Below, one piece after another: positions 1-63,850 of a stretch of 64,000 bases of DNA. Location of the stretch: contig NC_057718.1 in assembly GCF_004010195.1 (NCBI RefSeq), positions 10,212,009-10,276,008 on the forward strand. Direction: 5' to 3'. Numbering within the stretch: the first letter of the stretch is position 1; each line of letters begins with the position of its first letter. The notes under the pieces are model-generated. The model was given only the letters and a program-made list of their open reading frames with translations. It was not told where the DNA came from and searched no databases. Made by a program: the position numbers and the translations under genes. The DNA is from Chiloscyllium plagiosum (lineage: Eukaryota).

Positions 1-163
1 CTTTTATCTTAGCTTGCTGGACCAACTTTCCTCATTCCTGAAGAAGGGCTAATGCCCGAAACGTCGATTCTCCTGTTCCCTAGATGCTGCCTGACCTGCT
101 GCGCTTTTCCAGCAACACATTTCCATCTCTGATCTCCAGCATCTGCAGACCTCACTTTCTCCT
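1..163 (+). mobile_element. Penelope-derived terminal repeat (pLTR) fragment with hammerhead core
   Basis: ctgaaga-a-gggc-taat-gccc-gaaa-cgtc at 38-65; ends ctcactttctcctc like the other copies. Confidence 0.75.
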
Positions 164-216
164 CAAACATATGAGTAGAAAGCAGGAGACAACAGCTTCG
201 CTTCACTTGGAGGTCG

Positions 217-256
217 CCACTGATGATGTTACCGAGCCAGATAATGAAACGTCTGG
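217..256 (+). ncRNA. Minimal type I hammerhead ribozyme (second sequence type)
   Basis: CCA-CTGATGA-t-gtta(cc...ga)taat-GAAA-C-GTC-TGG: stem I CCA/TGG, conserved core, palindromic ACGT stem III, GUC cleavage triplet. Confidence 0.65.
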
Positions 257-292
257 ATATCAAACCTACAGCTCAGCAAGCAAACCTACACC

Positions 293-530
293 CCCTGACT
301 GTGTGGAGTTTGCACATTCTCCCCGTGTCTACGTGGGTTTCCTCCGGGTGCTCCGGTTTCCTCCCACAGTCCAAAGATGTGCAGATTAGGTGAACTGGCC
401 ATGCTAAATTGCCCGTAGTGTTAGGTGAAGGGGTAAATGTAGGGGTATGGATTGCACTTCGGCGGGGCGGTGTGGACTTGTTGGGCCGAAGTGCCTGTTT
501 CCATACTAAGTAATCTGACCTAATCTAATC
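293..530 (+). mobile_element. V-SINE (HE1-like), 5'-truncated
   Basis: V-domain tgtgtggagtttgcacattctccccgtgtct...cccacagtccaaagatgtgc, CR1-like tail and (taatc)n end. Confidence 0.85.
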
Positions 531-1989
531 CATGGAACTAAGCTCAGAACCCATTGTAGCAGTTGGCAGATTTTGAATTTAATTAATAAATCAGGAACAC
601 AAAGATAGTCTATGAAACTATCATTGACTGTTGTAAAAACCCATCTGGTTCACTGAGGCCCTTTAGGGAAGGTAATCTGCCCTCCTTACCCTGTCTGGCC
701 TATGTGTGACTTCAAATCTACAGCAATGGTGGTTGACTCTTAACTGCAGGTATTTACAATTTGTATTAAGGTGTTGGATAAGGAAAGCCAATATACTACA
801 ACCAGGTTTGCGGATCACACAAAAATAAGGGTTAAGATCACATTGTGAATGTTTTTGGGCCCCTTATCTAAGGAAAGATATACTAGTATATGGAAAGATA
901 TAATGGAGTGGAATCAGTACAGGACACAGGGTGTGAGGAACAGTAAGCTAAAAAGCAGTGGGAGTCAGTGAGAAATTTCTAATACAAAAGAAGACTCCAC
1001 TGCTTAGACCAGTAGCCTGAGAATTCTTATACTGATTGGTAAATCGGTTTTCTGTTTCAAACATTTTGAAATTTGTTCCATCTTTGTCAATCACAAATCC
1101 ACTTCCTCAGACAGCTTTCCATCCATCACACATTTTAATAATTTCTGGATTGCAAGTCCTAGAAAAACACTGGTGTATTGTTTCTTTTGAGGTACAAGGC
1201 ATGATAGTGATTCGACCTAACCACAAATTGCTTTGATCATTCAGGCAGTCTGTATTTCCAATTTCTCTTCCCCTTTTGGTTACAAGTGAAAATATCCAAC
1301 CCCAATAACAAACTGAACGAGCCCCACAAACATCCTCCAGTAACTGTAACCACAGCATGTCAATTTGTCAATTTCCCAAAACCAACTAAATCTCTGTGTT
1401 TATCCAATGTCTTAACAAAGACAGTTTCTCAAGAGCTCGACTGACCTCATACATGAGAGGAATTACAAGACCAAAGAGACTGAGGCAGTCACATGCACCT
1501 CCAACCGTCAGTAAGGGAGACCTTAATGATTAGCCATCAGTGGATAATATTCAGCAAGAGAAACAATGACTGGTCCAGTATCTGAGGTGCTGTTTTCAAG
1601 AGGAAACCTTGATCAGAAGACAATGCAATGAGGCCCAACTTAGGGCCAGCAGAGATCAAAATGAAAGTGTCTTGTGATATGTGTGTGAGTGAAGTGATGG
1701 GGGCAGCACAGAGCAGACATTACTTGCTATGAACTTGCTCTGTACATCCAGTGGCCAGTTATGCAGAGTTGGATTTAACTCACTACAGCTTCTGTGCTCT
1801 GTAAAACTGGCCCGAAGCTGCCTTAATCCTGTTTAACTGAGTAAAACTCTAGCTGAAATAATTGGCATGAGGAGAGGTAAATATAAAGAACTTGCATTTA
1901 TATAGCACCTATCAGAATGTCTCAAATCTTTTCAGAATGAATCATGGTGTGATGTCTGCTACCAATAATGAGATAGATTCACAGTTAAT

Positions 1990-2255
1990 TTGTACTTCAA
2001 TACTGATTGAGGAATAAATATTAGCCACGACACCAGACAGAACATTTCCTCGGGTCTTTGAAGAGTACCACAGGATCTATTACACACATCTAGGAGAGGC
2101 ACAATGGCCTCAGTTTAGCATCTGATCTGAAAGACAGCACCCTGGACAGTGCAGCACTCTCTTAGTGTCACTTTGTTTCAGAATCCCAAGCCTCTGGAGT
2201 GGGACTTGAACCCATGACCTGGTGACTTGGTGATGAGGATGTTACCCACCGAACC
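1990..2255 (-). mobile_element. Old Deu-domain SINE (SacSINE1/AmnSINE-like); related copies at ~25095-25330 (-) and ~63890-64000 (+)
   Basis: tRNA-like B box (ggacttgaaccc on +) and tctgaaagacagcacc...cagtgcagcactc, recalled as Deu-SINE sequence. Confidence 0.55.
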
Positions 2256-2717
2256 AGCAATAATTCTTTAAATATATTGATCTATTGCTTAATGGTCTTT
2301 AATGTAGCCTTGGAGAAGCTGTAACTAACTATATATCACCTCTGCACTGATACTCAAGAGTACAGTAACCCTGGGTGTATATGATTCACAGCGAAAGGGG
2401 AAGAGAAACTCCATCGCAGGGTTAACAGTTTTCATCAGAGTCTGCAGATTATCACAAGGAAATATAAGGGGAAATTACAAAAGTAGAAACAGAAACCAAC
2501 ATCTCTCCAGTTAAAAGGGGAGAGAGGAGCACAGTCTGAGGAACACAAAATCTAAATTCCATTGGACATTGCTCTGAAGACACCTTCAAAATTGAGATTT
2601 TCAGACTGAGAGTCTGATTGTAAAAATCAGCAAAACTAGAACAGGAGAAAGAGGATTCAATCAGCTGATTGCAGGCTATTGAACCAGGAGAGGAATAGCA
2701 ATCTGCAGAGGCTGGAC

Positions 2718-3017
2718 ATGGGGACAGGGAGGCTGCCGTTCTTCCTGCTGTTACCACTGCTGGTTCCTGGGGCAGTGCAAGGGGAGGTAATCCAGGATTT
2801 CAGCCAATGCGCCTGGTTCTTTCAGGGAAAGGTGCCACCACAGGGTTTCGACACTCAGAACCGCGTCAAAATCTGCCAGAGGTACAAGAACCATTACCAC
2901 TTTGTAACCTTGTACCGCACCGAGCTGAGAAACCCCGTCTACTCGGCATACAGGTATCCCTGCACCATGGGCATTCAGGCAAAACAGAGACCCAGGCCAT
3001 GGTTTTATGAGCCACAG
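2718..3017 (+). CDS. ENDOD1-like: ENDOD1-like secreted DNA/RNA non-specific endonuclease, coding exon 1 (100 codons)
   Basis: ATG at 2718 opens a signal peptide (MGTGRLPFFLLLPLLVPGAVQG). It is followed by C..FF...PP.GF, KICQRYKN.YHFVTLY....RNPVYSAY and WFYEPQ, typical of fish ENDOD1-family N-termini. Donor CAG|GTAAGT at 3017/3018, phase 0. Confidence 0.88.
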
Positions 3018-3099
3018 GTAAGTGTTAGTAACTAGACTGTTCACTGTGTACCACAGACAGAACATCGCTTGGATACAAAAAGCCCTAAGCCTGATAAGC

Positions 3100-3945: not shown

Positions 3946-4512
3946 TAATCACAGGGCTCTCCAAGATTTCTCGATGTTGGGAGGATAAATTGGAATTGGG
4001 AATTCACAAATCCAGGCTTGATTTTGCAGACACTGAGCGGCCAAGTCGACTGCATTTTTTTTTTGAGAACAGCCCAAGCTTTGCTGATCTATCTGAAAAA
4101 TGAAAATCAGATCCAAATGGAATCTGACTGATGGAAAATGAGCACAATACACTCAATCTGCTGGAGTGTCACAGGCTGGCCCAGAATTTATTACCCACCC
4201 TTAATTGCCCTTGAGAAGGTGGTGGTGAGCTGCCGTCTTGAAGCCCCATAGTTCAGGTGGTGGACAAACACCCACGGTGCTATTTGGGAAAGCGATCCAG
4301 GATTGTGACCCAGTGACACTGAAGGAATGGCGATTTATTTCCAAGGAAGGATGGTGTGTGGTTTTGAGAGGAATTTAAAGGTGATGGTGTGTTTCTATTT
4401 TAGTATCTCTTACGCTGTTTGATGTCAAATGTTCTGATTGTCCTCCTACCCTAGAGCCACATTCAAGGCACTAGATCAATGCAACTTGTTATCTGGTCTG
4501 TCTGTAATTAAT

Positions 4513-4640
4513 TCCTGAAGAAGGGCTCATGCCCGAAAAGTCGATTCTCCTGCTCCTTGGATGCTGCCTGACCTGCTGTGCTTTTCCAACAACACATTTT
4601 CAGCTCTGATCTCCAGCATCTGCAGTCCTCACTTTCTCCT
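4513..4640 (+). mobile_element. Short Penelope-derived insertion in the ENDOD1-like intron
   Basis: 13-bp TSD gtctgtaattaat (4500-4512, 4641-4653). Hammerhead core with stem III mutated (gaaaagtc). Confidence 0.8.
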
Positions 4641-4874
4641 GTCTGTAATTAATGTCCTGCTGCATATTGCCAGCTATTATTGCAGACATGCTTGAATTGT
4701 TTACTCAGTTAAACTCATTAAAAGATATCTCATTCGCAAGTGTAAAAGAAAAATTCAAAATTAAAATGCACTCCCATTCTATCTACAATTTATTTTGTGG
4801 TGATGAGTAATTTCATTCTCGCAGTGTGATCTGTAAAGGAGGGCTATGTTTGTTGGTGTGAAGGAGATTTTTTT

Positions 4875-5860: not shown

Positions 5861-6508
5861 ATCGATGATCCACATGCCTCACCTGAAATGACCAGCAGCA
5901 ACAATACCTCCAGTGACTCTCAGGCAGTGGATGCAGATTACAGTGGCTCAGGGTATGATCGAGGTCATCTATATCCCTATTCCTTTAATAGGAATGACAG
6001 TGCTACAGCCACCTGCACCCTCACCAATGCCGTCCCACAGAAGCACAAAGCCAACGTGAACTGGGCAAAGGAGGCAGAATATTTCGTCCTGACGTTGGCA
6101 AAGATTTGCCACAAATCCGGCCGCTCGGCCTACTTGGTGACGGGCTCAGCCAATTCCACCACCATCAAAATGAAGAACAAGGTGATGGTGCCTGGGGTAG
6201 CCTGGACTGCCCTTTGCTGCACTTCCTCACCAAGCCCAAATACTGATCCCTGTCTAAACAACCACGTGTGGTCAGAGGGACAGGATGTACCGAGGTACGA
6301 TAAAGACTTCTCTGCTGCTTTCAAGAAAAGGATGTTGCCAGAACAGCCAGCAGTCAGACTGACAGTGAGGGAGCTGCAGAAGGAGCTGGGAGTGGGCACG
6401 ATATTTGAGAGTTGCAGAGGTACAAGTGCAGATGATGAGGTGGAGACCTTCAAAGATGTGACCCTCCTGATTGAAGCAGTAATGTCTAACCAGAGGGGAC
6501 TCAGTTAG
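5861..6508 (+). CDS. ENDOD1-like: ENDOD1-like endonuclease, coding exon 2 (215 codons + stop)
   Basis: Acceptor ttgcggattttag| at 5860 gives a phase-0 join (EPQ|IDDP). Contains QAVDADYSGSGYDRGHLYP (His-Me finger DRGH motif), TCTLTNAVPQ...N and YLVTG...VPGVAWTALCC. TAG at 6506-6508. Confidence 0.9.
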   Translation: MDDPHASPEMTSSNNTSSDSQAVDADYSGSGYDRGHLYPYSFNRNDSATATCTLTNAVPQKHKANVNWAKEAEYFVLTLAKICHKSGRSAYLVTGSANSTTIKMKNKVMVPGVAWTALCCTSSPSPNTDPCLNNHVWSEGQDVPRYDKDFSAAFKKRMLPEQPAVRLTVRELQKELGVGTIFESCRGTSADDEVETFKDVTLLIEAVMSNQRGLS

Positions 6509-14305: not shown

Positions 14306-15563
14306 CCAACTTATTGGGAATCTGCTTTTTGGTCAATTTATAAGCTCTAGATTCTGGTCCATACCCTCCTCTCCTGTCAGTGATTGAGACCCATGAGGGG
14401 TTTGACCGAACGGGAGTTACAGAGCTTTTTTTTTAAACAGCACAGTAAGAAATGCAGATAAGTTTAAGCTATTCAGGAAGGTGCCCAACCTGCAGAACAA
14501 TGAGTAGCTCAGTGCAAGAAATTGGACTGTTGAGAGTTGACAATGTAAGATTCATGACACACTTCACAATGGACAGGGTCCAGTGCTGGCATTGTTATCA
14601 CACAGCAGTCAGTCAGTACTCCAGGAAAGGAAGATTAGACGCAGGACCGAAAACATAGCACTGTCTTGGAGGCGAGTACCCAGAAATGTCTCCTTTGTCA
14701 GAGATAACCTCCCAATGCCACTGAATGTTTAGGGGATGTAGTTTCTTGTTTTTTCAGTGGCAGGAGAAATAATGTATGTCCTTGCAGGTCATGTTAGTCC
14801 TTCCACATAAGAATATAAGAAACAGGAGTAGGCCTGCTCGGCTATTCCATAAGATCCTAACCGATTAGATGGTGGCCTTAACTCCACTTTGCCGACTCAC
14901 GTATCAATCAGAAATCTGCCCGACCAATCCTGAAATTATTCAGTGACCCTCCCCTCCCATGATTATCTTGACCATTGACAGAGTTGGACAGAGTGGGGAT
15001 GATTGTCTCACAGTCTCACTACGGGTACTGATCCAACTCAGTGAGTTAACAAGGTAGAGCATTGCACTGTTTTCACATTCTCTCCTCTCTCTCCCCAACC
15101 AGAAAGGGCTGATCGTAACAGCCCTTAACACAACTGTCTCATTTTGAGACAGAGGAAAATGTATTTTCTGATGGAAGGGACAATCATGGAAGGTTACTAA
15201 ACCGGAATCAGTCACATAAGGAAGCCTCTGAGAGGGATCTCTTGAGGTTGCTTTCACTTCTTTGTGATTTGAAATGGTTTTTATCAAATTAAAGACAATA
15301 TGAATTTATGATCTGCCTGTATTGCTCACAAACAAAGCTTTTCACTGTACTTAGTACACAAAACCACAATAAATCAAATCAAATATATTAAGCAATGCAT
15401 TTATATTTGGACAGCTCATGGCTTTCATTCTATTGCAGGACTGTCGTGGTTTAATAGATTGGTTTAATTAATTGGTTCATACATTGCTGTTAGTTAATTT
15501 CTGATGTTATTACTTAACCATTACTATAGCTTGCATTGCATGCTGAAGTTTTATACCAGTGAG

Positions 15564-15682
15564 GTAAAAACAATGACTGCAGATGCTGGAAACCAGATTC
15601 TGGATTAGTGGTGCTGGAAGAGCACAGCAATTCAGGCAGCATCGAAGGAGCTTCGAAATCGACATTTCGGGCAAAAGCCCTC
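15564..15682 (-). mobile_element. Short Penelope-derived insertion
   Basis: 11-bp TSD ataccagtgag (15553-15563, 15683-15693). Related terminal sequence; hammerhead truncated. Confidence 0.75.
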
Positions 15683-16786
15683 ATACCAGTGAGATGTGCT
15701 TGACCGATAGATACAAATTTAATCTCTTAGTTAGATATTTGTTCTTTTGTGAACTAAATTCTGTCAATATGTATGCATTTCACTCACATTTTCATGAATG
15801 GTACGTGAAAAGTTCACCAACACCTGCTTGACCACTAACCATGGGAAACAGCTGTAGAAACTCGTAAAAATTAGCAGCACACATGATGCTCATAGAAACT
15901 GAGAATTAAGTTTGCACTTTTGTTTAGGAAGTGATACTGCGGGTTTAATTGCGTTTTTTGATACCTATTATATAAAATATGTAATTGCCTTTGTGGTCAA
16001 TTACTTTGTCTAGCAGCAGAATCAGTCAAACGGTAACAGAATTCTTCACCTAGGAAACAAGTCCATCCCTCTGCAGAACGGTCAATGTTCAATCACAGTA
16101 TTGACAATGCAACAAGCTGGGTCAGCAACAAGGCTGAAGGGAGGGACAGAACATAAATCTAATAAAATCATTTTTGATTTATTGACTAATCTGAGAGGGA
16201 GTGATAGCAGTGGGTTAGTCTGAGAGTGACAGTAGGAAGCAAACAGCACAAAGTATCATGCAACAAATGCAACAGCTCAACGTCAGACCTACTATTGCAG
16301 AGTCGCAGTCCATTGAGTGATTGAATTGGGGAGAGTCCACCCAGAGCTGCCTCCAAACAGTAGCCCCTGAATCACCACTGGTCAGACAGTTTGCATACCA
16401 CTAGGGTAGGGTGTCCTGTCTTAGTAATGTATAAAATAATCAAGATAGTGACTGGCTTCTGTCCAGAATGTTTCAATGAGAACTACAGGCGAGGCATTAG
16501 GATTCCTAATTCCTCCAGTCCCCTCACTTGCTCTCAACCCATAGCCTTTGAACTTGCTGCTCTTTGCTCTTTTGGGTCCAGCCTTGACATTGTTATGAAA
16601 CCTGCTGATGGGGGCAGGGGGGGATGTTGTTTTGGACTCAGCACTGTATTCAATAATTTCAGACTGTGCCCTCATTTTGTTTCCTTTTTGCAGGTTTTGG
16701 CTTTCCTCTTGTTTTTGTTTTCAGAAGATAAATCCTCATCACGCTGCCATTTACACCTCTTTAAATCCATCTTTTGTTTTTTTTTT

Positions 16787-16985
16787 AAAACTCAGCAGGT
16801 CTGGCAGCATCTGCGGAGAGAAACCAGCGTTAATGTTTCTGGTCTGGTGACCCTTCCTCAGTTGAGGGCCCAAAACGTTAACTTTGATTTCTCTCCGCAG
16901 ATGCTGCCAGACCTGCTGAGCTTTTCCAGCAATTTCTGTTTTTGTTTCTGATTTACAGCACCTGCAGTTCTTTGTGTTTTTTGTT
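16787..16985. mobile_element. Palindromic Penelope-derived element (related family)
   Basis: Inverted arms ctcagcaggtctggcagcatctgcggagagaaa / tttctctccgcagatgctgccagacctgctgag. Confidence 0.7.
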
Positions 16986-17233
16986 TGTAATTTGTCTCAT
17001 TACTATTGTGCTTGGTTCCTCACCATTGAATCTTTGTCACTTAATCCCTCCGACCTTCTACCTGAGTCACAGACTTTCCCTTTTGGTTCTTTGTCGCACT
17101 TTCACTATTTGTGACATACTCAGAATCAAGTCTATCTCAAACAGCCATTGGATTGGAATCAACGAGTCTGCTTCTCTCTTCAGACAGGCTGCCTGACCAC
17201 CTGAGTTTTTCCAGTATTTGCTGTTTTCATTGA

Positions 17234-17550
17234 ATCACTACAGCATGGGAACAGGCCCTTCGGCCCTATAAGTCCATACCGACCCTCTGAAGAGTATCCC
17301 ATCCAAACCCATTCCTTATTACTCTACATTTACCCCTAACCTACATATCCCTGAATACTATGGGCAATTTAGCCACACCAATTCACCTAACCTGCACATC
17401 TTTGGACTGTGGGAGGAAACCAGAGCACCTGGAGGAAACCCATGCAGACACAGGGAGAATGTGCAAACTCCACACAGACAGTCGTCCGAGGCAGGAATTG
17501 AACCTGGGTCCCAGGTGCTGTGTGGCAGCAGTGCTAACCACTGAGCCATC
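17234..17550 (-). mobile_element. V-SINE (HE1-like)
   Basis: Reverse tRNA head, V-domain and tail. Confidence 0.85.
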
Positions 17551-22641: not shown

Positions 22642-22756
22642 AACTGCCTTTTCCCTAGAAGGCTCTACCACAAGCTGATCTAAACAAAAACCCATCTCAT
22701 GGACATTTCACAAATTCCTTTTCTTGGGATCCACTACCAGCCTGATTTTCTCAGTC

Positions 22757-42185: not shown

Positions 42186-42366
42186 CTGAAAAATGTGTTG
42201 CTGGAAAAGCGCAGCAACAACTAAGCCCTTCTTCAGGAGCTTATGCCCGAAATGTCGATTCTCCTGCTCCTTGGATGCTGTCTGACCTGCTGCGTTTTTC
42301 CAGCAACACATTTTTCAGCACTGATCTCCAGCATGTGCAGTCCTCACTTTCTCCTAGTTGATTTTA
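42186..42366. mobile_element. Palindromic Penelope-derived insertion
   Basis: 15-bp TSD accttacaataaatg (42171-42185, 42367-42381); inverted arms. Confidence 0.8.
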
Positions 42367-42594
42367 ACCTTACAATAAATGACAACATTCCACTTGCAGT
42401 ACCTGCATTGCAATTTTTTCACCTGATCCTGCAGATCCCTCTGCACTAGTGAGTCCTGTAACTCTCTCTGGGAACATTTTGACCCCATCGCCTCTGTTCG
42501 GACCCTTTATGATATTGAACTGCTCTGTCAAATCTCCCCTTAATCCTCTCCAATGAGAGCATCCCCAGCTTCTCCAATCCATCTAAATAATGGG

Positions 42595-42862: not shown

Positions 42863-43120
42863 CAACTGACTGGGTTAGCTGCGTAATATCCAATGATCCA
42901 AATGACATTTTTCTCTTCTCTAGCATTGCCTGGATATTTCCAAGTTGATAAAGTGCATTTCCTGGAGAGGCACAGACACACATGTTTAAATCAGTATATA
43001 GGGTCAAAGTTAGATCCTGGCTGCTGGTTACTTGTGGGAAATGGTTAGTGGGAGCCAGCAGTCTATGGTTCACAGCTTGAGTGTATAGACCAAGCAAAGC
43101 AAACTGAACCCTTAAGTCAA

Positions 43121-43201
43121 CAGTGTGTTGCTGGGAAAGTGCTTTCCCAGCAACACACTCTCAACTCTCATCTCCAGCATCTGTAGTCCTCACTTTCTCC
43201 C
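43121..43201. mobile_element. Very short palindromic Penelope-derived insertion
   Basis: 15-bp TSD gaaccctKaagtcaa (43106-43120, 43202-43216); hairpin agtgtgttgctgggaaag/ctttcccagcaacacact. Confidence 0.75.
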
Positions 43202-45255
43202 GAACCCTGAAGTCAATCTGGTGAACAGAGAACATTAACCGTGCATCGTAAGTGACAGTACTTCACTGAGTGCTCAGATTCTCAACTCCATTTATGTTAG
43301 TGCCTTTAAATTAGAAAGCCGGCAAGGCATTTTGCAGGAGAATTATCAATCTAAAAATTGAGAAGAAGGAGATAAGTGTGCCAAACGTTGGATAGAGGAG
43401 TGAGGGCCACGATTCAATTTCCTGCATATGAGGTGCTTGCTCTTCCTCGTCATTGGACCTACTGATTTGTGGTGACAGAATAAATCAATTCATGCGGCCA
43501 GGGAGCACAGAGTCTATAATGGAAGCCAGAATCTACAAGCCTTCCTGTTTTCCAGGAGGAATGGCAAGCCTTGGGAACAGGCAGCATTTTACTTAAGAAA
43601 GGAAACCCAACGAGGGAAAGAAATTGTAACAATGTTGATGGCAGAGAAGCTGTACCTTCCGGTTACACTGCAACCTATAAGTAAACATTAAAACCGCTTC
43701 ACACACATATTATTGCTTTTGAAACAATTTACAAATGCCTTTGCCTGGCTTACTGGCAAGCTAATAATTGAGACGAGGGCCTGAGGGAGCACACTGTGTC
43801 TAGGTGATGCTAAAACAGAAAAGTTGACTCATTCCAATCAGTGTTATTGCTACAAGGGCTGTGAGCATTTTGCTTAAGAATTTTCACAACAGGGAACATC
43901 CAGCCCGAAGTAAACCTCTGGTGCAGACATTTTGTTTTAATCATTCACAGGATGAGGGCGTCACTAGCCAGACCAGTGGGCAGTTAATACTCAACCACAT
44001 TGCTGTGGGTCTGGAGTCACATTCAGGCCAGACCAGTAGATTTCCTTCCCCAAATGACATTAGTGAACCAAATGGGTTTTTCCCCAACAATCAATGATGG
44101 TTTTGTGGTCATGATTGGCCTCTTAATTCTAGATTTTCATTGTATTCAAATTCTACTATGGCAAGATTTGAACATAGGACCCCAGAACATTATCTGGATT
44201 AACAGCCCTGCGATAATACCACTAGGCTATTGCATGTAGCTTATCAGCAACAAGAGATGTGAGATACCAACACTGGGACTCAATCTCCTTGTTCAGATTT
44301 ATTACTGCCTTTCACTGAATGTTATCACATCTATTTCTCTCCTCCTCTCTTGATTCATGATGAGTCAATTCCCTCAGAAGTGTTAGTTGCCTCATGGTCC
44401 CCAAGAGTCGCATCTTTCACATCCGAACACCAACAGCGAGTGCTGATGGGCAATTTGACTGAGAGGTGCACATTCTCCTTTGGCCTCAACATCCTTGTGT
44501 ACCCACTTTCCAGAGGGTACCTCTCTACAGACCAGACATACCACGACTGATCCTGGCACCAGTTCACTATGACTATTCCCTTCTCCACATGTTTTCAAAT
44601 CAGATCAGCCACCTAGTTCTAGATTTCTGTCCCTTTGCAGAAGGAAATCTGCCATCTTTACCCTGTCTGACCTACATGTGCTTCCAGACCTGCAACAAGG
44701 TGGCTAACTCTCATTGTCCTCTGAAGTGGCTAAGCCACTCGTTTGTAGCAAACTGCTACAGAAAGATCACAAGATGGGCAGCAGTGGTTCATGATGACAG
44801 CTTGCCACTAGCTCTCAAGGGCAATTTGGAATGGGCAATAAATGCCTATCTCTTGTCATTAATCCCCACACCTGTCAAAGAATATTTTAAACAAAAACCA
44901 TTGACCTGGGCTCTCACACACCTGTAACAATGACATGCTTTTCATTTATGCAGCTATTCAACCTGCACCTGGGTGTGGAAGATGCTGGTAAAGGAGTATT
45001 GGTGAGTTGCTGCAGTGCATGGCAGATGGTACACACTGCTGCCACTTGTGTTTCAGTGGTAAAAGGACAGACTGTCGACAGAGAGTGATGGGCACCAAGC
45101 AGGCAGGCTGCTTAATTCTAGGCAGTGTCAAGCTTTTTGAGTGTTGTTGGAGCTGTGCTCATTCATCTAAGCAAAGAGTATTAAGTACTGGGCAGCAGAA
45201 ACACAAAAGCACCATCACTTGCAAGATACCCTCCAAGCCACACACTTTCCTGACT

Positions 45256-49835: not shown

Positions 49836-51398
49836 TCACTCTGGACTATCACCAGACCTATTAATCCCAGAGACCCAAGTTCTGTGGATCTGGGCTTGAA
49901 TCCTATCATGGCTGAATTCAATAAATATCTGGAATTAAGAGCTTAATGGTGATCATTAGTTCATTAATTGCCGGGGGAAACCCCATCTATTTCATTAATG
50001 CCCTTTAGTAAAGGAAATCTGATGTCCTTACCTCGTCTGGCCTACATGTGACTCCAGACCCACAGCAATCCCTCCTGGGAAATTAGGGGAGGTCAATAAA
50101 TGCCCAACCAGTGACACACACATCCTGTGAATGAATTTAATAAGTCACTTCCATGGTAAATAGGGAATTAGCAATAAGCACCTTGGCAAGGAAGGCCCAC
50201 AAGTCAATAATTATTTTTTTTAATAAAGGGTGGAACAATTTCAAGTAAAAACCTAGCATTTATTGTCCATCCACTTGGGTCTGCAATCACACGTCGGCAG
50301 AATTCCTTCCTTAAAGGACATTAGTGAACCAGTTGGGTTTCCTTCCCCCCACCCCCACCATTGATTCATGAATATCATCACCTTTAATTCCAGATGTTAT
50401 TGTATTCAAATTCCACTCTTTGCCATATTTGAACTCAGATTCCCAGAATAATACCACTCGGCTATTGTCTCCCTCCTGATACATTGAGAACAAAAATAAC
50501 TTAAACACTGGCTATCATTTAGACCCTTTTGACTCCAAATGTTATGAAAGGAGCAATGCCCTGATATTTTTTATTTTAAGTGTTTGAAAAATATTTTCCT
50601 TATTGTTTACAAAGAGATTGTCAAAAATTTTGCTGTAACCCATATCCCTTGTGTCCAGCATCACGTTGGAAATGACTCACAATTGCTTCCTCCCAAGCAA
50701 CAGGAAGAAGAAAAAAATGTTTTTGATTGAAGTTAATAACATGCTCAGTGTTTGTACAAGGTCAGAGTGGTACAAATGCAAACGAGTTGCTTCGTTTATA
50801 CAGAACCCCCACCCCCCCCAGGCTCGTTTTACTGACTGCATCCAGGGGGATTCATAATGACCCCACTTTGGCCACCCTGTTACGTGGCAGAGGGTGAAAT
50901 CCGATTCCAGAAGATCCCCATCTGGTTTTTGTTCTCACCTTGCAGATGCCGTCAATACTTCCTGGTTTCTGCACCGTCATTCCGCCGTCGTCAGGAATCA
51001 GAGACGTCAGCCGTGTACAGTATGTGTGTGTGAGAGAGAGTGCCAGGTTTATAGTTGGAAAACTGCACAGAACCTTAATTAAGTTACGGGATGCAGAGAG
51101 TTGCTTATCTGTTTATATTATATGGCAGTGAAGGTCCTTCTTTTTATAGATTTGCATTGAATCCAAATACATCACAAAATACATTGATCTCCTTTCAGCA
51201 GTTAATACCAGAAAATTCTTATTGTTTTAAAAAGGAATGTATTTGCATTTATAGACCATCATTCAGGTCTTTCCAAAAGCACTTTACAAAAAATGAAGTA
51301 ATCTAAGTATTAATTTTTTTTTCTTCATTCTTTCCTGGGTTGTGTGTGTCACTGGTGCCCCGAATTGTCCTTGAGCTGAATGGCTTATGTAAATATAT

Positions 51399-51822
51399 GA
51401 GGAGAAAGCGAGGACTGGAGATCAGAGCTGAAAATGTGTTGCTGGAAAAGCACAGCAGGTCAGGCAGCATCCAAGGAACAGAAGAATCAACGTTTCGGAC
51501 ATAAGCCCTTCTTCAGGAATGAGGAAAGTGTGTCCAGCAGGCTAAGACAAAAGGTAGGGAGGAGGGACTTGGGGGAGGGGCGTTAGAAATGCGATAGGTG
51601 GAAGGAGGTCAAGGTGAGGGTGATAGGCCGGAGAGGGGGTGGGGGCTGAGAGGTCAGGAAGAAGATTGCAGGTTGGGAAGGTGGTGCTGAGTTCGAGGGA
51701 TTTGACTGAGACAAGGTGGGGGGGGAAGGGAAATGAGGAAACTGGAGAAATCTGAGTTCATCCCTTGTGGTTGGAGGGTTCTTAGGCGGAAGATGAGGCG
51801 CTCTTTCCTAGGCCGAAGATTG
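51399..51822 (-). mobile_element. Penelope-like element 3' fragment inserted in the ERV 5' LTR
   Basis: Minus strand encodes ...ERLIFRLRTLQPQGMN, the C-terminal end of a PLE GIY-YIG domain. Shares the gaggagaaag terminus with the other copies. Flanked by the 11-bp duplication tgtaaatatat. Confidence 0.8.
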
Positions 51823-52534
51823 TGTAAATATATACCTTAGTACGAAGCATTCAGAAGCATTTAAATGATATATTTGTTTCAGTTACTTATAATACAATGC
51901 TATGCTTAACCATTAACTAACACAGTGGGTTTTGTAACCCTTGTGGGGACGAACAGACAGTGGAAAAGTACTGAGTACATCTGACTTGTAAAGATATGCT
52001 GATGTAACCAGACAATAGGAATGACTTTTAACAAAGAGCAGTGTGTACTGATGGCCATGGTGGCGGTTGGGAGTGCGAGGCAGACAGCGGGGGTGTTGCC
52101 GCCTGTGAGTGCAGATGCAGGACATGGTGTGGTTTTAAAAAACACAAGAAGTATTTCGCGCCACCACCTGCAGAAGGAGGTCACATGGGGTCAGATATCC
52201 GGGAACGCGAGAAGGCGGAGAATGGAGTCAGGTCAACAGCCAATCACACCTCAATGCTTGCCCAATGTTCTGTGATTACATGACGTTTTGTACTGTATAA
52301 AAGACTGGGTCAGGGGCAGGCTAGCGGTTCGACTTCGTGAACTGACACACTTTGCTGTTTGTCAGGGACGGGAAGACCTAGACCCAGAGCTCTGTATACT
52401 TTATCCACTCACTGCTAAAATAAACTAAGAGTTTGAGACCGAATATCTTCTCCTATTGCTTCATTTAAAGAACACGCAGGACTGGACTCACACATAACGG
52501 AAAGTAAGCTGGTACATTGAGCTGGAGTCCAACA
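51823..52534 (+). repeat. ERV 5' LTR (main body; first 11 bp duplicated at 51388-51398)
   Basis: Starts tgtaaatatat and ends gagtccaaca. TATAAAA at 52296, AATAAA at 52419. Direct repeat of 55306-55985. Confidence 0.92.
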
Positions 52535-52537
52535 ATT

Positions 52538-52555
52538 TGATGACCCCGACGTGAT
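52538..52555 (+). promoter_or_regulatory. Primer binding site, tRNA-Trp
   Basis: TGATGACCCCGACGTGAT lies 3 nt after the 5' LTR, one mismatch from the tRNA-Trp PBS TGGTGACCCCGACGTGAT known from avian sarcoma-leukosis viruses. Confidence 0.85.
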
Positions 52556-52924
52556 GAAGACGGAGAAGTGACGGAAAAGAGAGAAAAATAGAAACAACGG
52601 GCAACTGACGTCTAATGACAACAACAAGCGGCGCCGCATAAAAAAGATGAGCAGACGCCTGTTTATATCGAAGTTCTGCGATTGGAGATACCAAATTGAT
52701 TGTTGTCATTATACTGCAAGTGTCCTAGTAATAATAAGTGGATAAAGTATTGATATAATACGTACGGGTTTAAAGTCTCATGGGGTTAGAGTCCCCATAA
52801 AAGCAACAAAGTTGAAGACGTACAGGTTTAAAGTCCCATGGGGTTAGAGTCCCCATAAAAGCAACAAGGTACGTAAGAAGAGCCGCGGTCGAGCGTGAGG
52901 AGGTTTTAAGACCATTGAGCAGGA

Positions 52925-53203
52925 TCTCATAAAATCAACATTCACAGCTTTCTCCAAACAGGTTGGAGCGGCAAAGGGGGACCGACAGAGCCAGGCGCCA
53001 CCTACCACAGACTGGGTCCTGCTGAAGGTGATCAAATGGAGTGGTCGGAGCCAAGATGGACAGGACCTTACAAGGTGGTGGAGAGGACATCCCATGCAGT
53101 CAGACTGCAGGGGAAAGGAGAAAGCTGGTACCATTGGAGCCAGTGTGCAGCCACAGAACCGCCGACAAGAACTCTAGAACAAATGAGAACAGAAAAAGAG
53201 TAG
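52925..53203 (+). pseudogene. pol: Retroviral integrase C-terminal (GPY/F-type) remnant
   Basis: Translates as ...TTDWVLLKVIK/(frameshift)WSEPRWTGPYKVVERTSHAVRLQGKGESWYHWSQCAA...EKE*. No RT, RNase H or DDE core is present upstream. Confidence 0.8.
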
Positions 53204-53239
53204 AAGGGTTTTTAAACTTTTAATTGCGTAAAGGCCATA

Positions 53240-55261
53240 ATGTTCATCTCTGCAGGGGACCCACATCATCCGAGGCGGTTGTGGTTGGGAGTTCTTGCTA
53301 TTATTTCATGTATAATTGTTATGCCGCTGTTAATATGGGAGCCAACCGCAAGGTACAGACAGACACACAGGCGAGGGAGAAGGGCCCAGGAACGAAAGAT
53401 CAACAGGACAAGAGGCGGACAAATGTTTAAGGGAAGTGGGGAGCCAGGTACACATCAGACATAACCCAAAGCATGATAAAACATATCAGTTTGACTTATG
53501 CAAAGCAATAAACTGTGGCCACAATCCAGAGAGCTGGAGAGGGTATGATGTATACCTTTGCGTGCATACCAATTACTATAGATGGTGCCCGACATGGAAT
53601 CATGTACTACATGGACTGGGGTAAGATGGACACCCAAGAAGTCGCCATCCTCAGATAATAGATGGAAGGCTCGAGACCATGTGAGCCTGACTAGGGGGCA
53701 ACTCGATCATTCCTCAGAGATAAAAAATCCACTCTTGTTAACCCTGACAGGATTCAACATCAGCCCTGGTCCCGAAGAAGTACGGAATCAATGCGAAATC
53801 GATGATAAAAGCTTTTACTTTGTAATAGGTGTAGATCAATCAGGAAAGGATACCATGGGACTAGTGAAGGTAACCTTGGTGGATCCTCCTATGCACCAGC
53901 CAAAAACCGAAAACACAACAAGCGTGGAGTTAGAACAAAGTTCAGGAGTTGTGGTGATAGATTGCAACAACATTACGAGAGATGACATTATTTGACTAGC
54001 CACCGGATACAGTGATAGGAACATGTGGCTGGACTGGATGATAGCTACCGCAACCTCAATGAATATGAGTAATTGCATTGCGTGTTCCTCGGCTAGGCCA
54101 ACCCTATTTACTACCCCAGCCCCATTGTTCCCTAGTACAGACCCAGCAGGATTTTACTGCATGATGGCACTCACCATGCAGGCAGACCCTCCTAATTGTA
54201 CCACCTTAAGTGCTATTTTTCCACCTGTAAAGAATTCCACATTGCCCCCAGTGTTTATCCCTAAGGCTGACAATTACACTTGTTTCACTCGAAGTTCTCA
54301 CATAATCTTGGGAGACATGCCTGTTGAATGGTGTAAGGACACGATTAATGTAAACGGCTGGCAGAATGCTAGTACAATGATTTGGGGTAGAGCTGATCTG
54401 TTCTGGTACGGTGGTGATAGAACGCTGCACGTTAGTTTACCTCCAGATTGGTCTGGAACCTGTGCAATGGTCAGGCTAGGGTTACCCTTATTCCTATTAG
54501 GAGAACGACAACAGGGAATCAATCCACATGTACGAAAACGCAGGGATTTGTTTGATATCACTTCCAGTTCAACCACTTACATAGATGCAATAGGTGTCCC
54601 CCAAGGTGTACCTGATGAATATAAATTAGTAGACCAGGTAGCAGCAGGATTTGAGAATCTCCCAATTATCAGTGCTCTATTCCCACTCACGCCGAATAAA
54701 AACATCAACCGAATCAATTATATACATTACAATGTACTCAGGCTAGCCAACAAAACTAGAGACGCGGTGGCAGGACTCTCTGAACAATTAGCAGTGACCT
54801 CATTAATAACAGTACAAAATAGAATGGCCTTAGATATGTTGTTAGCGGAAAAGGGGGGGGTGTGCCTTATGTTCGGAGATCAATGTTGTACGTTCATCCC
54901 CAATAATACAGCACCTGATGGTTCGGTAACTAGAGCCCTGGAAGGACTAAAAACCTTGTCTGAAGAAATGCATGAACATTCAGGTATTGACAACCCTCTA
55001 GGAGGCATTTTCGACTCATGGTTTGGGAAATGGAAAGGAATGGTTGTGTCTTTGTTTCTGTCCCTTGTTGGTATGATGACTGCGTTAGTGTTGTGTGGAT
55101 GTTGTTGTATCCCCTGTATTAGATCTCTGTTTAACAGGGTAATCATCACAGCAATTGAAGGGGAAGCTCCCCCGCCCTACCAGATGGCACAGATGGAGAC
55201 GGAAACAATGGCTCTGGCGGGAAGGGAAGACGACGTGTCGGAGAGCGAATGTAATGGATAA
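53240..55261 (+). pseudogene. env: Retroviral env (gamma-type), disrupted by two frameshifts (~53410, ~53610) and a TGA at 53993-53995; 3' 412 codons (54023-55261) open
   Basis: Hydrophobic leader LWLGVLAIISCIIVMPLLIW, SU CxxC (CIAC), furin site RKRR, ISD VQNRMALDMLLAEKGGV, CX6CC (CLMFGDQCC), TM helix and a CGCCCIPC tail. Confidence 0.9.
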
Positions 55262-55305
55262 ACCTGTTTGGTTGGTCTCATTTTCATGAGACCAAAAGGG
55301 GGACT

Positions 55306-55985
55306 TGTAAATATATGCCTTAGTACGAAGCATTCAGAAGCATTTAAATGATATATTTGTTTCAATTACTTATAATACAATGCTATGCTTAACCATTAAC
55401 TAACAGACAGTGGAAAAGTACTGAGTACATCTGACTTGTAAAGATATGCTGATGTAACCAGACAATAGGAATTAACAAAGAGCAGTGTGTACTGGCGGCC
55501 ATGGTGGCAGTTGGGAGTGCGAGGCAGACAGCGGGGGTGTTGCCGCCCTGTGAGTGCAGATGCAGGACATGGTGTAATCTGTGGTTTTAAAAAACACAAG
55601 AAGTATTTCGCGCCACCACCTGCAGAAGGAGGTCACATGGGGTCAGATATCCGGGAACGCGAGAAGGCGGAGAATGGAGCCAATCAGAAGACAACCACAC
55701 CTCAATGCTTGCACAATGTTCTGTGATTACATGACATTTTGTACTGTATAAAAGACTGGGTCAGGGGCAGGATAGGGGTTGGACTTCGTGAACTGACACA
55801 CTTTGCTGTTTGTCAGGGATGGGAAGATCTCGACCCAGAGCTCTGTATACTTTATCCACTCACTGCTAAAATAAAGTAAGAATTTGAGACTGAATATCTT
55901 CTCCTATTGCTTCATTAAAAGAACACGCAGGACTGGGCTCACACATAAGGGAAAGTAAGCTGGTACATTGAGCTGGAGTCCAACA
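55306..55985 (+). repeat. ERV 3' LTR
   Basis: Follows the polypurine tract aaaaggggga (55294-55303). Same termini as the 5' LTR. TATAAAA at 55747, AATAAA at 55870. Lacks a ~32-bp segment present in the 5' LTR. Confidence 0.92.
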
Positions 55986-61665: not shown

Positions 61666-62193
61666 TTTATGACCATCAAATTGGTGAAAGACATTCTTTG
61701 GTTTGCCTGAAATTTGTTGATCTTCCAGAACAAACAGTTGACCTCAACTTGGCACATTCCAGGGTCCAGGACCACGTGCTGAGGGACGCAATAAAGCTTG
61801 GGGCAGCTACCATCTTAGCGAAGTGGGAAAAGACCACTGTCTGAGGTTTTTCTGCTTAAGGTAAACGGGGGTCTGTTCAGTTATCAGACCCTCCTAGTGC
61901 CTCAAATTCATGTAAATATACTTGTATGTGTAAGAAATATCTTTGATTTGTTTGGATAGAGTCAAACTCCAATGTTTATTTGTTTCTTTGATGTGCTGCT
62001 GTACAGAACCAAATTATATAGAGTCCATAGAATCCATACGGTGTGGAAACAGGCTATTTAGCCCAACAAGTCCACGCGGACCCTCCAAAGAGTAACCCAC
62101 CCATACCCATTACTCTATATTTATCCCTGACTAATGCACCTAGCCTACATATCCTTGAATATTCTGGGTAATTTAGCATGGCCAATTCACCTC

Positions 62194-62362
62194 GAGGAGA
62201 AAGTGAGGTCTGCAGATGCTGGAGATCAAAGTTGAAACTTCATTGCTGGAACAGCACAGCAGGTCAGGAATTCCTGAAGAAGGGCCTGTGCCCGAAACGT
62301 CGAATCTCCTGTTTCCTGGATGCTGCCTGACCTGCTGTGCTGTTCCAGCAATAAAGTTTCAA
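62194..62362. mobile_element. Palindromic Penelope-derived insertion inside a V-SINE
   Basis: 11-bp TSD caattcacctc (62183-62193, 62363-62373); inverted arms. Confidence 0.85.
62270..62305 (+). ncRNA. Minimal type I hammerhead ribozyme (best-preserved copy)
   Basis: ATTC-CTGAAGA-A-GGGC-ctgt-GCCC-GAAA-C-GTC-GAAT: 4-bp stem I, 4-bp stem II, palindromic ACGT stem III, GUC triplet. Confidence 0.75.
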
Positions 62363-63380
62363 CAATTCACCTCACCTACCTATCTTTGGACTGTGGGGGG
62401 GGAAACAGGAACACCCAGTGGAAACCCACGCAGACACGGAGAGGGTGTGCAAACTCCACACAGACAGTCGCCTGAAGCTGGATTCAAACCCAGGTCCCTG
62501 GTGCTACGAGGCAGCAGTGCTAACCACTGAGTGACTATATATATATGCACAGATGTTTTTCAGGAATAAAGTATATTTTTGAATTTATGGAGAGGGACAG
62601 TGTGTCCTCCTGATTAAACATCTCCAAGGAGATGTCTAACAAGCACAGGTCATGGTGAGGACACAGACCCCTCAGAAAGAGGACACTATGTCACAGGTCT
62701 GACACAGCATCGAGGGGATAATTGGATAATTTCTTGTTGTGTCAGGTGCCTGCTCTCTCCCTCTCCACAGCCAAGTTAGCATCTTCATGCTATCCTACTA
62801 TGACCAGAATTGTCTCTTTCAGGGAAGTGAGAGGATACAGCTGATGGACACCAGTCTAATTCCAGTCTGTACTGGGAATGACTTCCCATCATGGCTTCAT
62901 GAGTGTTCTACTTAATCAGAGAAGCAATCGTGTTCCTGTAAAGTTTTAAACCGTCCTCCAGGCTCTCATACCGTAACATCAAAAAGAAAAATGTCTTACA
63001 AGATGCAGGCTGGTCAGTTAAGGTGCCTTATATCTAAGAACAACTATTCTGCTCTCTGGAGATATCAGAACCAATCCCTATTAAAGTGTCACATGTTTGT
63101 CTGCGTTAAGTGTTTCACCATCACAATCAAGGATGATGCAAACCTTAGATAATTGACTGTCCACCCAGCAGGATTGGCAGAGATGTGTAATAGGATTTGC
63201 CTTTACCTTGGCAGAATTCAAATGGTGTAGCTTGGCTGAGAGTTTTTTTGGAATTTATTTAGGCAAGGGCAAGTGTAAATAATATGAATAAATGGTGTAC
63301 CTGCCATAACACAGTGGATAGTACTGTCACCACTAGGCAGACGTCACCCACCACCAGGTTATAGTCCAACCAGTTTCATA

Positions 63381-63720
63381 TCATAGAATCTCCACAGTGT
63401 GGAAACAGACCATTTGACCCAACAAGTCCACACTAATCTTCTGAACAGCATCCCACCCAGACCCATCCCACTACCCTATCCATGTAACTCTGCATTTCCC
63501 ATGGCTACACATTCCTGGAAACTACGGGCAATTTAGCATGGCCAATGCACTCTAACCTGCACATTGTTGGATTGTGGGAGGAAACCAGACCACCCGGAAG
63601 AAACCCACGCAGACACGGGGAGAACATGCAAACTCCACACAGACACCCCAAGGGTGGAGTTGAACCCGGGTCCCTGGCGCCGTGAGGCAGCAGTGCGAAC
63701 CACTGAGCCACTGTGCCGCT
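63381..63720 (-). mobile_element. V-SINE (HE1-like)
   Basis: Reverse head, V-domain and tail. Confidence 0.85.
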
Positions 63721-63726
63721 CAAAGC

Positions 63727-63850
63727 CACCTGATGAAGGAGCAGTGGTCCAAAAGGTTGTGATTTCAAATAAATCCATTGGACTATAACCTGTTATTGTG
63801 TGACTTCTGACTTTGTCCACCACAGTCCAACACCAGCACCTCTGCATCAC
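63727..63850 (+). mobile_element. Third Penelope-like terminal repeat with decayed hammerhead
   Basis: CAC-CTGATGA-a-ggagcagtggtcc-aaaa-ggtt-GTG; a partial inverted copy (caggttatagtccaa) lies near 63356-63370. Confidence 0.5.

Follow-up and report, generated by a model that had tools for sequence, protein, structure and literature searches.

Short, related and often palindromic inserts with a hammerhead ribozyme motif recur in the window analysed here, a 64,000-nt stretch of Chiloscyllium plagiosum DNA within which all insert counts, ends and lineages given below were determined. Are such inserts a family in their own right or pieces of a larger element? The initial annotation had listed eleven of them and had offered both readings, extreme truncation-inversion products of Penelope-like elements (PLEs) or a non-autonomous, retrozyme-like family mobilized by the PLE copy at 36439-37110. 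Comparison of the sequences within the window confirmed that all eleven are in place and similar to each other, and nhmmer, with a profile made from these inserts, found a twelfth, decayed copy at 17157-17249 (E = 2.8e-6). Positions within the copies are given on a ruler based on copy A, in which -1 is window position 164. The copies are as follows.

Copy A, 1-164, plus strand: PLE 3' end, truncated by the window edge; intact hammerhead at 34-69, with an initiator-like A at 34 (-131) and the cleavage site following 65 (-100).
Copy B, 4513-4638, plus strand: single arm from -131/-129 to -4/-2, hammerhead core with AGTC; 15-bp TSD (4498-4512 and 4639-4653), 2 nt of microhomology at both ends.
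Copy C, 15564-15682, minus strand: single arm of a different lineage, beginning within the core (-121); 11-bp TSD (15553-15563 and 15683-15693).
Copy D, 16787-16985, palindrome: older lineage with a longer stem II; decayed hammerheads, no clear TSD.
Twelfth copy, 17157-17225, plus strand: decayed, absent from the earlier list, followed by a SINE.
Copy E, 22757-22971, palindrome: tail arm on the minus strand (-125 to -1), tail-less arm on the plus strand (-127 to -37) with an intact hammerhead at 22881-22908; 15-bp TSD (22742-22756 and 22972-22986), 5-nt microhomology at the tail-less end.
Copy F, 35581-35760, decayed palindrome: tail arm from about -92, tail-less arm from -125 to -35; 14-bp TSD (35567-35580 and 35761-35774) with 2 mismatches.
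Copy G, 36438-37110, minus strand: 5'-truncated PLE with the linker CX4CXXC and the end of the endonuclease; N gap at 36518-36789 (272 N), 79 codons with both GIY-YIG motifs deleted, no RT, no TSD.
Copy H, 42186-42366, palindrome: tail arm on the plus strand from about -119, ending 11 nt beyond the usual end, in the element body; tail-less arm reaching -129, with an inner deletion; 15-bp TSD (42171-42185 and 42367-42381).
Copy I, 43121-43201, palindrome: 81 bp, turning at about -64, no hammerhead; 15-bp TSD (43106-43120 and 43202-43216) with 1 mismatch.
Copy J, 51399-51822, minus strand: 424 bp, 5' truncated, with the ORF end, 3' UTR and a hammerhead at 51516; tail with a 9-nt deletion; 11-bp TSD (51388-51398 and 51823-51833); hot spot of read 5' ends at 51520.
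Copy K, 62194-62362, palindrome of another subfamily: tail arm on the minus strand (-75 to -1), tail-less arm on the plus strand (-131 to -39) with an intact hammerhead with a 4-bp helix I at 62270-62305; 11-bp TSD (62183-62193 and 62363-62373).

As had been claimed, seven of the ten listed inserts with two flanks (4513, 15564, 22757, 42186, 43121, 51399 and 62194) have a TSD of 11 to 15 bp with at most one mismatch, and an eighth TSD, at 35582, is decayed. Only 2 of 147 random intervals scored 11 or more. Copy A (1-163) was excluded from this count because the window edge cuts the insert, and comparison of the flanks of the inserts at 16787 and 36439 gave no TSD. The results support independent insertions. 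A fixed terminus is common to nine of the eleven copies; those at 15564 and 16787 carry other tails, and the one at 42186 extends past it. Most copies are indeed non-coding and of 80 to 215 bp, but G (673 bp, N gap included) and J are ordinary longer truncations.

The Penelope origin is supported. Judged from sequence, the inserts are the 3' ends (pLTR plus tail) of Neptune/Nematis-type PLEs, a kind of element that has already been described, and they are stump-sized products of this known type of retrotransposon. Copy G shows 74 to 80% identity, over 58% of the query, to carpet-shark RT-GIY-YIG proteins, and its close relatives have a single ORF with an RT and, at the C terminus, a GIY-YIG domain (P0002: RVT_1, E = 9.3e-5; GIY-YIG, E = 8.6e-5). 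Copy G shares with P0002, P0003 and P0004 the linker CX4CXXC; a CX2-5CXXC linker between RT and EN defines Neptune/Nematis (PMC8557442). A CXXC between the GIY-YIG motifs and two later histidines are present in P0002, P0003, P0004 and P0008 and deleted in copy G. We prefer Neptune over Nematis, only because Neptune is the clade reported across vertebrates. Copy J connects the ORF end to the hammerhead, which places the motif in the terminal repeat 3' of the ORF. There are at least three sequence lineages, with C and D 71 to 81% identical to A and B. None of the window copies has an intact RT or GIY-YIG domain, and copy G, lacking an RT and with both GIY-YIG motifs lost, cannot be the proposed mobilizer.

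The minimal type I hammerhead motif was found in five arms (38+, 4515+, 22881+, 62274+ and 51516-) with a descriptor that gave one match per 100 Markov sequences, i.e., 0.01 expected. All five have CUGANGA, the extra base, a stem II with G10.1-C11.1, GAAA and NUH, but the exact CGTC that had been reported is found in only three; 4515 has AGTC, and 51516 has CGTT and a G-U pair in stem II. In the predicted folding ensemble, stem II has pair probabilities of 0.96 to 1.0 and helix I of less than 0.02. The palindromic ACGU (15.1-16.1) is present in four of the five arms, followed by C in three and by U in one, and is lost in copy B; in a predicted two-strand fold of the unit of copy A, this palindromic segment pairs between the strands. 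The four stem II loops quoted earlier are correct, but the loop does not vary significantly more than the stem (5 of 36 versus 3 of 72 variable sites; P = 0.11), and we rejected this difference as proof of selection. Stem II is 92.5% paired, with one double change (copy D), and helix I is 64.5% paired, with double changes in rows whose 5' side is junction DNA. No Rfam hammerhead family matched in the window to an E value of 5, nor in region 1-170 to an E value of 10. Matches to the Rfam families mir-15, mir-722 and mir-422 are below the gathering scores and lie on palindromes E and K, so we read them as hairpin artefacts. The motifs resemble the minimal hammerheads of PLEs, as far as the accessible part of their description goes, in the core, the extra base between 9 and 10.1, G10.1-C11.1 and the palindromic 15.2-16.2; there too, most are solo motifs of truncated PLEs, and opposite-strand pairs have been noted. 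They differ from them in having a stem II of 4 bp, compared with 7 to 8 bp in Schistosoma motifs, and a helix I that in the main lineage has 2 bp and a mismatch and in copy K has 4 bp; sharks are not named there.

We propose that the inserts are dead-end products of endonuclease-bearing PLEs, each of which would be newly made from the terminal module of the RNA of an autonomous element. Every insert is the 3' end of the element, most with a TSD of their own, and copying ended preferentially at -1 (with the tail), at about -35 to -45 (without the tail) and at about -131 to -121 (5'), a pattern with support from reads. The protein would nick the target, and RT would initiate internally on the RNA, at two sites on either side of the tail, as described for Poseidon_Ac of Anolis (Frangieh et al. 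2024, PMC11167929). In the available text of that study, nicking and extension occur on both strands, the two internal RT starts fit the two 3' ends of our inserts, and the unprocessed RNA template fits copies that span the cleavage site. This biochemistry comes from an element of another clade, Poseidon, which, unlike Neptune/Nematis, has no linker Zn finger, and a pile of 5' ends at the hammerhead is not reported in that text. Up to this point, we consider the model probable.

Six of the eleven listed copies are palindromic, with the tail on one arm only, and in five of the six the tail-less arm ends at -35 to -44. Inverted arms without the 35- to 45-nt tail match the published anatomy of EN+ PLEs, whose insertion unit shows 5' truncation, an adjacent inverted pLTR, a 30- to 40-bp tail at one end and a variable TSD (Arkhipova et al. 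2013, PMC3846280; Craig et al. 2021, PMC8557442). In Adineta Pen2a, the inverted copy is 37 bp shorter (PMC3846280). A shorter, tail-less inverted arm, a junction that is palindromic and lies at the repeat's 5' edge, a TSD and microhomology at the 5' junction are thus shared features; the inserts differ in being mostly without an ORF (81 to 215 bp), in TSDs of 11 to 15 bp versus 8 to 10 bp in Adineta, and in the piling up of 5' ends at the hammerhead. The six palindromes have six different centres and six tail-less ends. As all centres differ, each palindrome was built anew, and the window holds no master element. Truncation-inversion, as in the first of the two earlier readings, is supported. 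In H, F and K, and also in D, the tail-less arm holds 5' sequence that is missing from the tail arm (an excess of 10 nt in H and 33 in F), so that neither of the two arms simply duplicates the other. This asymmetry is seen in four of four copies (P = 0.125), but the missing 54 nt of copy K are flanked by 5-nt direct repeats, which would fit a deletion at a later time, and copy I leans the opposite way by 2 to 3 nt. We slightly favour a scheme in which both staggered nicks prime, one per start site, so that two cDNAs would be joined head to head as a palindrome, and single priming would give a single-arm copy. More tentatively, the tail-primed strand may displace the other and stop early. In L1 twin priming, the second target strand likewise primes on the RNA, which yields a 5' inversion joined by microhomology. 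Whereas the parts of an inverted L1 are different stretches, the two arms of our inserts cover the same stretch.

The palindromes could also arise by fold-back, in which the 3' end of the first cDNA serves as its own primer and copying runs back to the second nick, with later deletions skewing the centres. This is a serious possibility, albeit with less than an even chance. Copy K has a perfect centre at -130 with no loop, and copy E has a 1-nt loop. The arms of one copy also belong to one lineage (identities of 36/37 in K, 50/55 in D and 82/87 in E), and self-priming has been proposed for the palindromic junctions of Adineta (PMC3846280). However, an inverted arm made by fold-back cannot reach further 5' than its template, as it does in H, F, K and D, unless all large deletions hit the tail arm, and fold-back alone leaves the stop of the inverted arm at -35 to -44 unexplained.

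The breakpoints are non-random and discrete. In seven of ten copies, the 5' end lies within the 11 nt from -131 to -121, at the 5' edge of the hammerhead, a clustering seen in none of 200,000 geometric simulations and with a probability of 2e-5 under a steeper null. In raw reads of run X21, the depth over copy J is 1040 at 51499 and 238 at 51526, a steeper drop than in any other of nine intervals. At 51520, 121 reads pass from the element into mixed sequence, so this single base accounts for just 121 of the 802 lost (15%). Subfamilies that diverge upstream of the hammerhead could mimic part of this step. Run X21 is a fragmented poly(A) single-cell library; its reads lie in both directions and 96 in 100 continue into unlike sequence, and we read them as passenger sequence of many loci and not as small RNA. 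Molecule ends do not pile up in these reads, though in a fragmented library such a pile would stay hidden anyway. In the DNA contig runs, the six top loose ends do not include 51520, and depth there falls at most twofold (X1) or without a clear step (X9); contig depth was not taken as copy number. Base 51520 is the A of an initiator-like heptamer with a background of 1.2% per base, a match chosen post hoc. By eye, the ACGT core near +28 is a candidate DPE, 2 nt off the usual spacing, and was not counted. We also considered a splice acceptor, as at helix I in Drosophila virilis, and rejected it, as no AG precedes -131. We lean towards -131 being the transcription start of a promoter in the pLTR, in which case priming on the upstream pLTR would give cDNAs of 90 to 131 nt. 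PLE promoters are internal, within the pLTR (PMC2377424). Less in favour of the model, in the accessible text on the Anolis element its pLTR reaches 145 nt upstream of the ORF start (PMC11167929). That transcription starts at the first base of helix I, that the upstream pLTR is a self-contained template of 90 to 131 nt and that one RNA is primed from both target strands is a combination we put forward tentatively, and the whole chain of five steps, from 3' end to palindrome, may hold but is still somewhat improbable.

A stop or a cut could produce the same hot spot, if the edge of helix I brings RT to a halt or if the GIY-YIG enzyme nicks the new DNA at the ATT that starts at -131. We regard this as a real possibility, on the lower side of even. 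The hot spot coincides with the first base of helix I and with an ATT; in the available text of the Anolis study, the enzyme cuts this motif more often than any other (PMC11167929). AAT is present in five of eight TSDs (P = 0.02, post hoc), and the ends do not share one base but scatter across 11 nt. The prediction shows almost no helix I, though, and where a helix stops RT, this is usually at its 3' foot. The internal position of PLE promoters also argues against a stop or cut.

A separate non-autonomous SINE- or retrozyme-like family, with short copies transcribed and recopied in trans, is unlikely. Seven of the ten copies are near unit length and some retain the initiator-like start, non-autonomous PLEs such as MRC1 exist (PMC8557442), and retrozymes derive from pLTRs (Li et al. 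2026, bioRxiv 10.64898/2026.07.22.740005). Like non-LTR retrozymes (Cervera and De la Pena 2020, PMC7229834; Li et al. 2026), the inserts are small, non-coding, pLTR-related, dispersed monomers with a type I hammerhead. Those retrozymes, however, form head-to-tail tandems with at least two same-strand hammerheads and a circular RNA, whereas the inserts are solo or head to head, and none of the five tandem rows of the window overlaps an insert. A 93-nt go-back joint, i.e., a tandem unit from about -130 to -38, is present in a few run contigs (three in X1, one in X9 and one in X17), where tandem joints are rare. Against a family stand the lack of a centre common to any two of the six palindromes, the arms that match within the lineage of each copy, the 91 to 93% identity of short copies to the longer A and J, and copies that end at the RT start sites, which lack the RNA extension of about 55 nt beyond these sites required in the accessible account of the Anolis element (PMC11167929). 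The earlier choice between truncation and a family was thus too strict: the breakpoints are discrete, and yet the copies are no family of their own.

That the templates are RNAs freed by hammerhead self-cleavage is very improbable: five arms keep the full core, and minimal hammerheads cleave themselves weakly as dimers (PMC4209133), but none of ten copies starts at the cleavage site (-100), seven carry 20 to 31 nt upstream of it, depth loss across 51482-51499 is not steeper than nearby (0.020 to 0.027 per nt), and, in the available part of the Anolis study, mutants of the hammerhead remain able to insert in vitro (PMC11167929). The hammerhead would be carried along uncut and appears to be unneeded for insertion. 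Simple 5' truncation at random points, with a mean length that is very short, can hardly apply either; three ends lie elsewhere (-64, -433 and -682) and read depth declines along the whole element, but the clustering and the single-base pile of reads speak against it.

We found no prior description of such a shark hammerhead Penelope or of such short palindromic copies in the literature searched, with subscription papers, Repbase and Dfam largely outside its coverage, and an exact-pattern scan of metagenome contigs for the tail gave no matches. Mechanistic work on how the inverted repeats and the tail of PLEs are formed has been called for (PMC8557442); according to the accessible text on the Anolis element, the later insertion steps are unvalidated (PMC11167929). 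The inserts are copied up to the front edge of the hammerhead and not from its cut site, which hints at the copying route of PLEs. Counts of solo hammerheads in sharks would mostly reflect dead PLE stubs, and palindromic copies score as microRNA hairpins. In a single unit of 100 to 200 bp, the stubs preserve both RT start sites together with the 5' stop, and twelve copies cover 2,600 of the 64,000 bases (4%) of this window, so that counts in a shark assembly could settle the choice between twin priming and fold-back. If it is true, the route from a transcription start and two-strand priming would account for the tail and the inverted pLTR of PLEs and for their masses of solo hammerheads, and the natural record in shark genomes on which to test it would be very large.

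All inserts in the window represent the 3' end of a single type of Penelope-like element (PLE). All 11 inserts proposed as a family in the initial annotation were found and are mutually related, and a profile built from their arms (an arm being one pLTR-derived stretch) matched, within the window, 16 arms of the listed inserts and one decayed extra copy at 17157-17249.

PLE inserts of the window. Negative positions count back from the 3' end of copy A; 5' reach is the furthest position per insert, judged by eye in the alignments; TSD, target-site duplication.
Copy A: 1-164; 3' end at window 164 is -1, the ruler for all positions
Copy B: from 4513; TSD 15 bp; 5' reach -131
Copy C: from 15564; TSD 11 bp; 5' reach -121; other lineage
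Copy D: from 16787; no TSD; 5' reach -127; palindrome; other lineage
Copy E: from 22757; TSD 15 bp; 5' reach -127; palindrome
Copy F: from 35581; 12 of 14 TSD bases match; 5' reach -125; palindrome
Copy G: from 36438; no TSD; 5' reach about -682; coding fragment
Copy H: from 42186; TSD 15 bp; 5' reach -129; palindrome
Copy I: from 43121; TSD 15 bp; 5' reach -64; palindrome
Copy J: from 51399; TSD 11 bp; 5' reach -433
Copy K: from 62194; TSD 11 bp; 5' reach -131; palindrome

The TSDs of 11 to 15 bp claimed for seven inserts were recovered by a scripted search in 7 of the 10 inserts with two flanks, with 0 or 1 mismatch (a similar score arose in 2 of 147 random intervals), and none was found at copies D and G. 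AAT occurs in five of eight TSDs (B, C, E, F, H, I, J, and K; P = 0.02, post hoc), reminiscent of the preference that the Anolis endonuclease has for ATT. The fixed terminus said to be common to most is present in 9 of the 11; the exceptions, C and D, belong to other lineages and are 71 to 81% identical to A and B. Palindromes, described as frequent, make up 6 of the 11. The window is also rich in SINE and LINE fragments, which we take to be V-SINE/HE1 and CR1/HER1. Copy K (within 62024-62540) interrupts a SINE, and a SINE comes directly after the decayed copy at 17157, so the PLE and SINE families were active in overlapping time. The stretches at 2640-3035 and 5861-6508 are probably exons of a host gene for a DNA/RNA non-specific endonuclease (PF01223, E = 1.8e-14 for the latter); copy B occupies part of the interval separating them, in sense orientation. 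An env-like open reading frame (ORF) at 53996-55261 (PF00429, E = 1.5e-8) is flanked by two 300-nt direct repeats of 94% identity within 52233-55983, a probable endogenous retrovirus remnant.

The Penelope origin is borne out by the two longest inserts. Copy J spans the last ORF codons, a pyrimidine-rich 3' UTR, the hammerhead, and the fixed end. Copy G matches RT-GIY-YIG proteins (12 matches among 123 candidates, Pfam domains checked), the closest named ones being from Rhincodon typus, Stegostoma tigrinum, and Chiloscyllium punctatum, which makes a carpet shark the most likely source of the DNA. Its linker carries CX4CXXC, a motif that, in the available part of PMC8557442, marks Neptune and Nematis and is lacking in Penelope/Poseidon. 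Copy G had been proposed to mobilize the others, which is impossible because it starts downstream of the RT and has lost 79 residues, including both GIY-YIG motifs. The C terminus of P0003, a relative of the copy G protein, is a read-through peptide resembling the window hammerhead translated in frame, which suggests that in Stegostoma the same motif follows the ORF.

The hammerhead (C3 at -127, cleavage site after -100) is a good match, as sequence, to the PLE hammerhead in the accessible text of PMC4209133. Five arms match a minimal-hammerhead descriptor, against one match in 100 Markov controls, so the claimed motif stands in these arms, but in its exact written form it occurs in only three; an Rfam search gave no hammerhead match. 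Folding of the 131-nt unit of copy A predicts stem II (pair probability 0.96-1.0) but almost no helix I; helix I of copy K has 4 bp. Stem II covariation is thin (one double change, from copy D), and the double changes in helix I occur in rows whose 5' side is junction DNA. The variable stem II loop on a kept stem was not confirmed, the loop being not significantly more variable (P = 0.11, our counts). Loop II overlaps an ATG in copies of the main lineage. The palindromic copies at 22844-22920 and 62236-62358 give sub-threshold Rfam microRNA matches (mir-15, E = 1.6e-8).

Random breakpoints had been set beforehand as the mark of simple truncation; the 5' ends in the window are discrete. Among 10 inserts (copy A, truncated by the window edge, was left out), seven end within 11 nt (-131 to -121). 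Geometric truncation yields such clustering in 0 of 200,000 simulations, and under a steeper null omitting J and G its probability is 2e-5. None of the 10 starts at the cleavage site. Four public runs were compared with copy J plus flanks at 85% likeness. In the raw-read run X21 (2,882 reads placed on J, about 2 in 100 of the run sampled), depth is 1,040 at 51499, 238 at 51526, and 222 at 51548, and the loss from 51499 to 51526 is the steepest of nine intervals (0.055 per nt versus -0.001 to 0.027). At 51520, which is -131, 121 X21 reads switch from the element to mixed sequence (agreement 0.44), accounting for 15% of the lost depth. The top six loose ends listed for the contig runs X1, X9, and X17 do not include this position, and contig depth across the hot spot falls about twofold in X1 with no clear step in X9. 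Subfamilies diverging upstream could contribute to the step.

Helix I begins at position -131, which is at the same time the A in a YYANWYY heptamer; we take this heptamer to be an initiator consensus, and it matches at 1.2% of window bases. According to the part of PMC2377424 available, PLEs have internal promoters situated within the pLTR. We read the hot spot as marking the RNA 5' end, where templates would begin; a rival reading is that the RT halts there or that the endonuclease nicks at ATT. The 5' end of copy J (51805-51822) nearly copies the stretch just internal to it, and reads diverge at 51805, as from RT slippage at the junction.

The 3' ends are of two kinds, with and without the tail (35 to 45 nt). 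Tail arms end at -1 or at most 3 nt from it, except in copy H, whose tail arm goes 11 nt further; X1 contigs continue likewise, so the element body extends past the fixed end. Tail-less arms end at -37 (E), -35 (F), -39 (H and K), -44 (I), and -58 (D), with microhomology to the TSD of 5 (E), 1 (F), 2 (H), 1 (K), and 0 (I) nt. Near 51431-51436, hundreds of contigs turn into sequence of low agreement, a pattern consistent with a second 3' end but also containing subfamily differences. The shark inserts resemble those of Adineta, in which the inverted pLTR is shorter by 37 bp and one arm bears a 31-bp tail (PMC3846280, available in part). In Anolis, two internal RT start sites delimit the tail, and the two shark 3' ends fit these sites; nicking and extension occur on both strands of the target, mutating the hammerhead does not abolish insertion, and RNA to +172 is required although RT begins at +111 to +118 (PMC11167929, available in part). 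If this requirement holds here, copies ending at RT start sites could not be recopied because the RNA beyond them is needed. Copies A, E, G, J, and K all terminate in C (164, 22757, 36438, 51399, and 62194), a position occupied by A in the element body as seen in copy H and X1 contigs; this C is absent from the target too in E, J, and K and is possibly a non-templated base from priming or a subfamily variant. At 42340-42357, the usual 3' end is immediately followed by the AG that terminates a pyrimidine tract, motifs resembling branch points lie upstream, and the tail may be where an intron stops.

All six palindrome centers differ, and both arms of a copy are of one lineage (arm-to-arm identity 36/37 in K, 50/55 in D, 23/25 in F, and 82/87 in E); therefore, at least three lineages, probably with more subfamilies, make the same shape independently. 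Each arm carries unique sequence: one has the tail, and the tail-less arm extends further 5' in K, D, H (by 10 nt), and F (by 33 nt). We lean slightly toward twin priming, in which both target nicks prime on RNA, giving each arm its own sequence; if one RNA serves both nicks, the tail-primed strand would have to displace the other, shortening it. The asymmetry supports this slightly (4 of 4 copies, P = 0.125): K resembles a hairpin, perfect at -130, from which 54 nt flanked by 5-nt repeats were later deleted, the tail-less arm of H carries a deletion too, and the asymmetry of copy I is opposite, by 2 to 3 nt. Fold-back, in which the first cDNA primes on itself, is possible though rather doubtful: without later deletion it cannot yield the longer 5' sequence on the tail-less arm.

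A retrozyme or otherwise separate non-autonomous family is not supported. Retrozymes form head-to-tail tandems with at least two hammerheads and circular RNA, as far as the available text of PMC7229834 and bioRxiv 10.64898/2026.07.22.740005 describes them, whereas no tandem row in the window overlaps an insert, and the short copies are 91 to 93% identical to the longer A and J. A go-back joint from 51519 to 51427 occurs in five contigs of three runs (X1, X9, and X17), a rare 93-nt head-to-tail unit in which the 5' hot spot is fused to the tail-less end.

The inserts are real and their kind is already known: inverted truncated copies with a tail are standard PLE insertion in the consulted portion of PMC8557442, and 2014 work, in the part available, reported solo minimal hammerheads of truncated PLEs, also as opposite-strand pairs (PMC4209133). 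A literature search, whose coverage fell short of most subscription papers and repeat databases, returned no description of these shark families or of 5' ends piling at the hammerhead. The window adds the initiator match at the hot spot, two 3' ends that fit the two RT start sites in the published text available, the arm asymmetry, and the GIY-YIG motif loss in copy G. The palindromic copies could be miscalled as microRNAs or give rise to genuine hairpin small RNAs, and the 93-nt junction could seed a retrozyme-like array.
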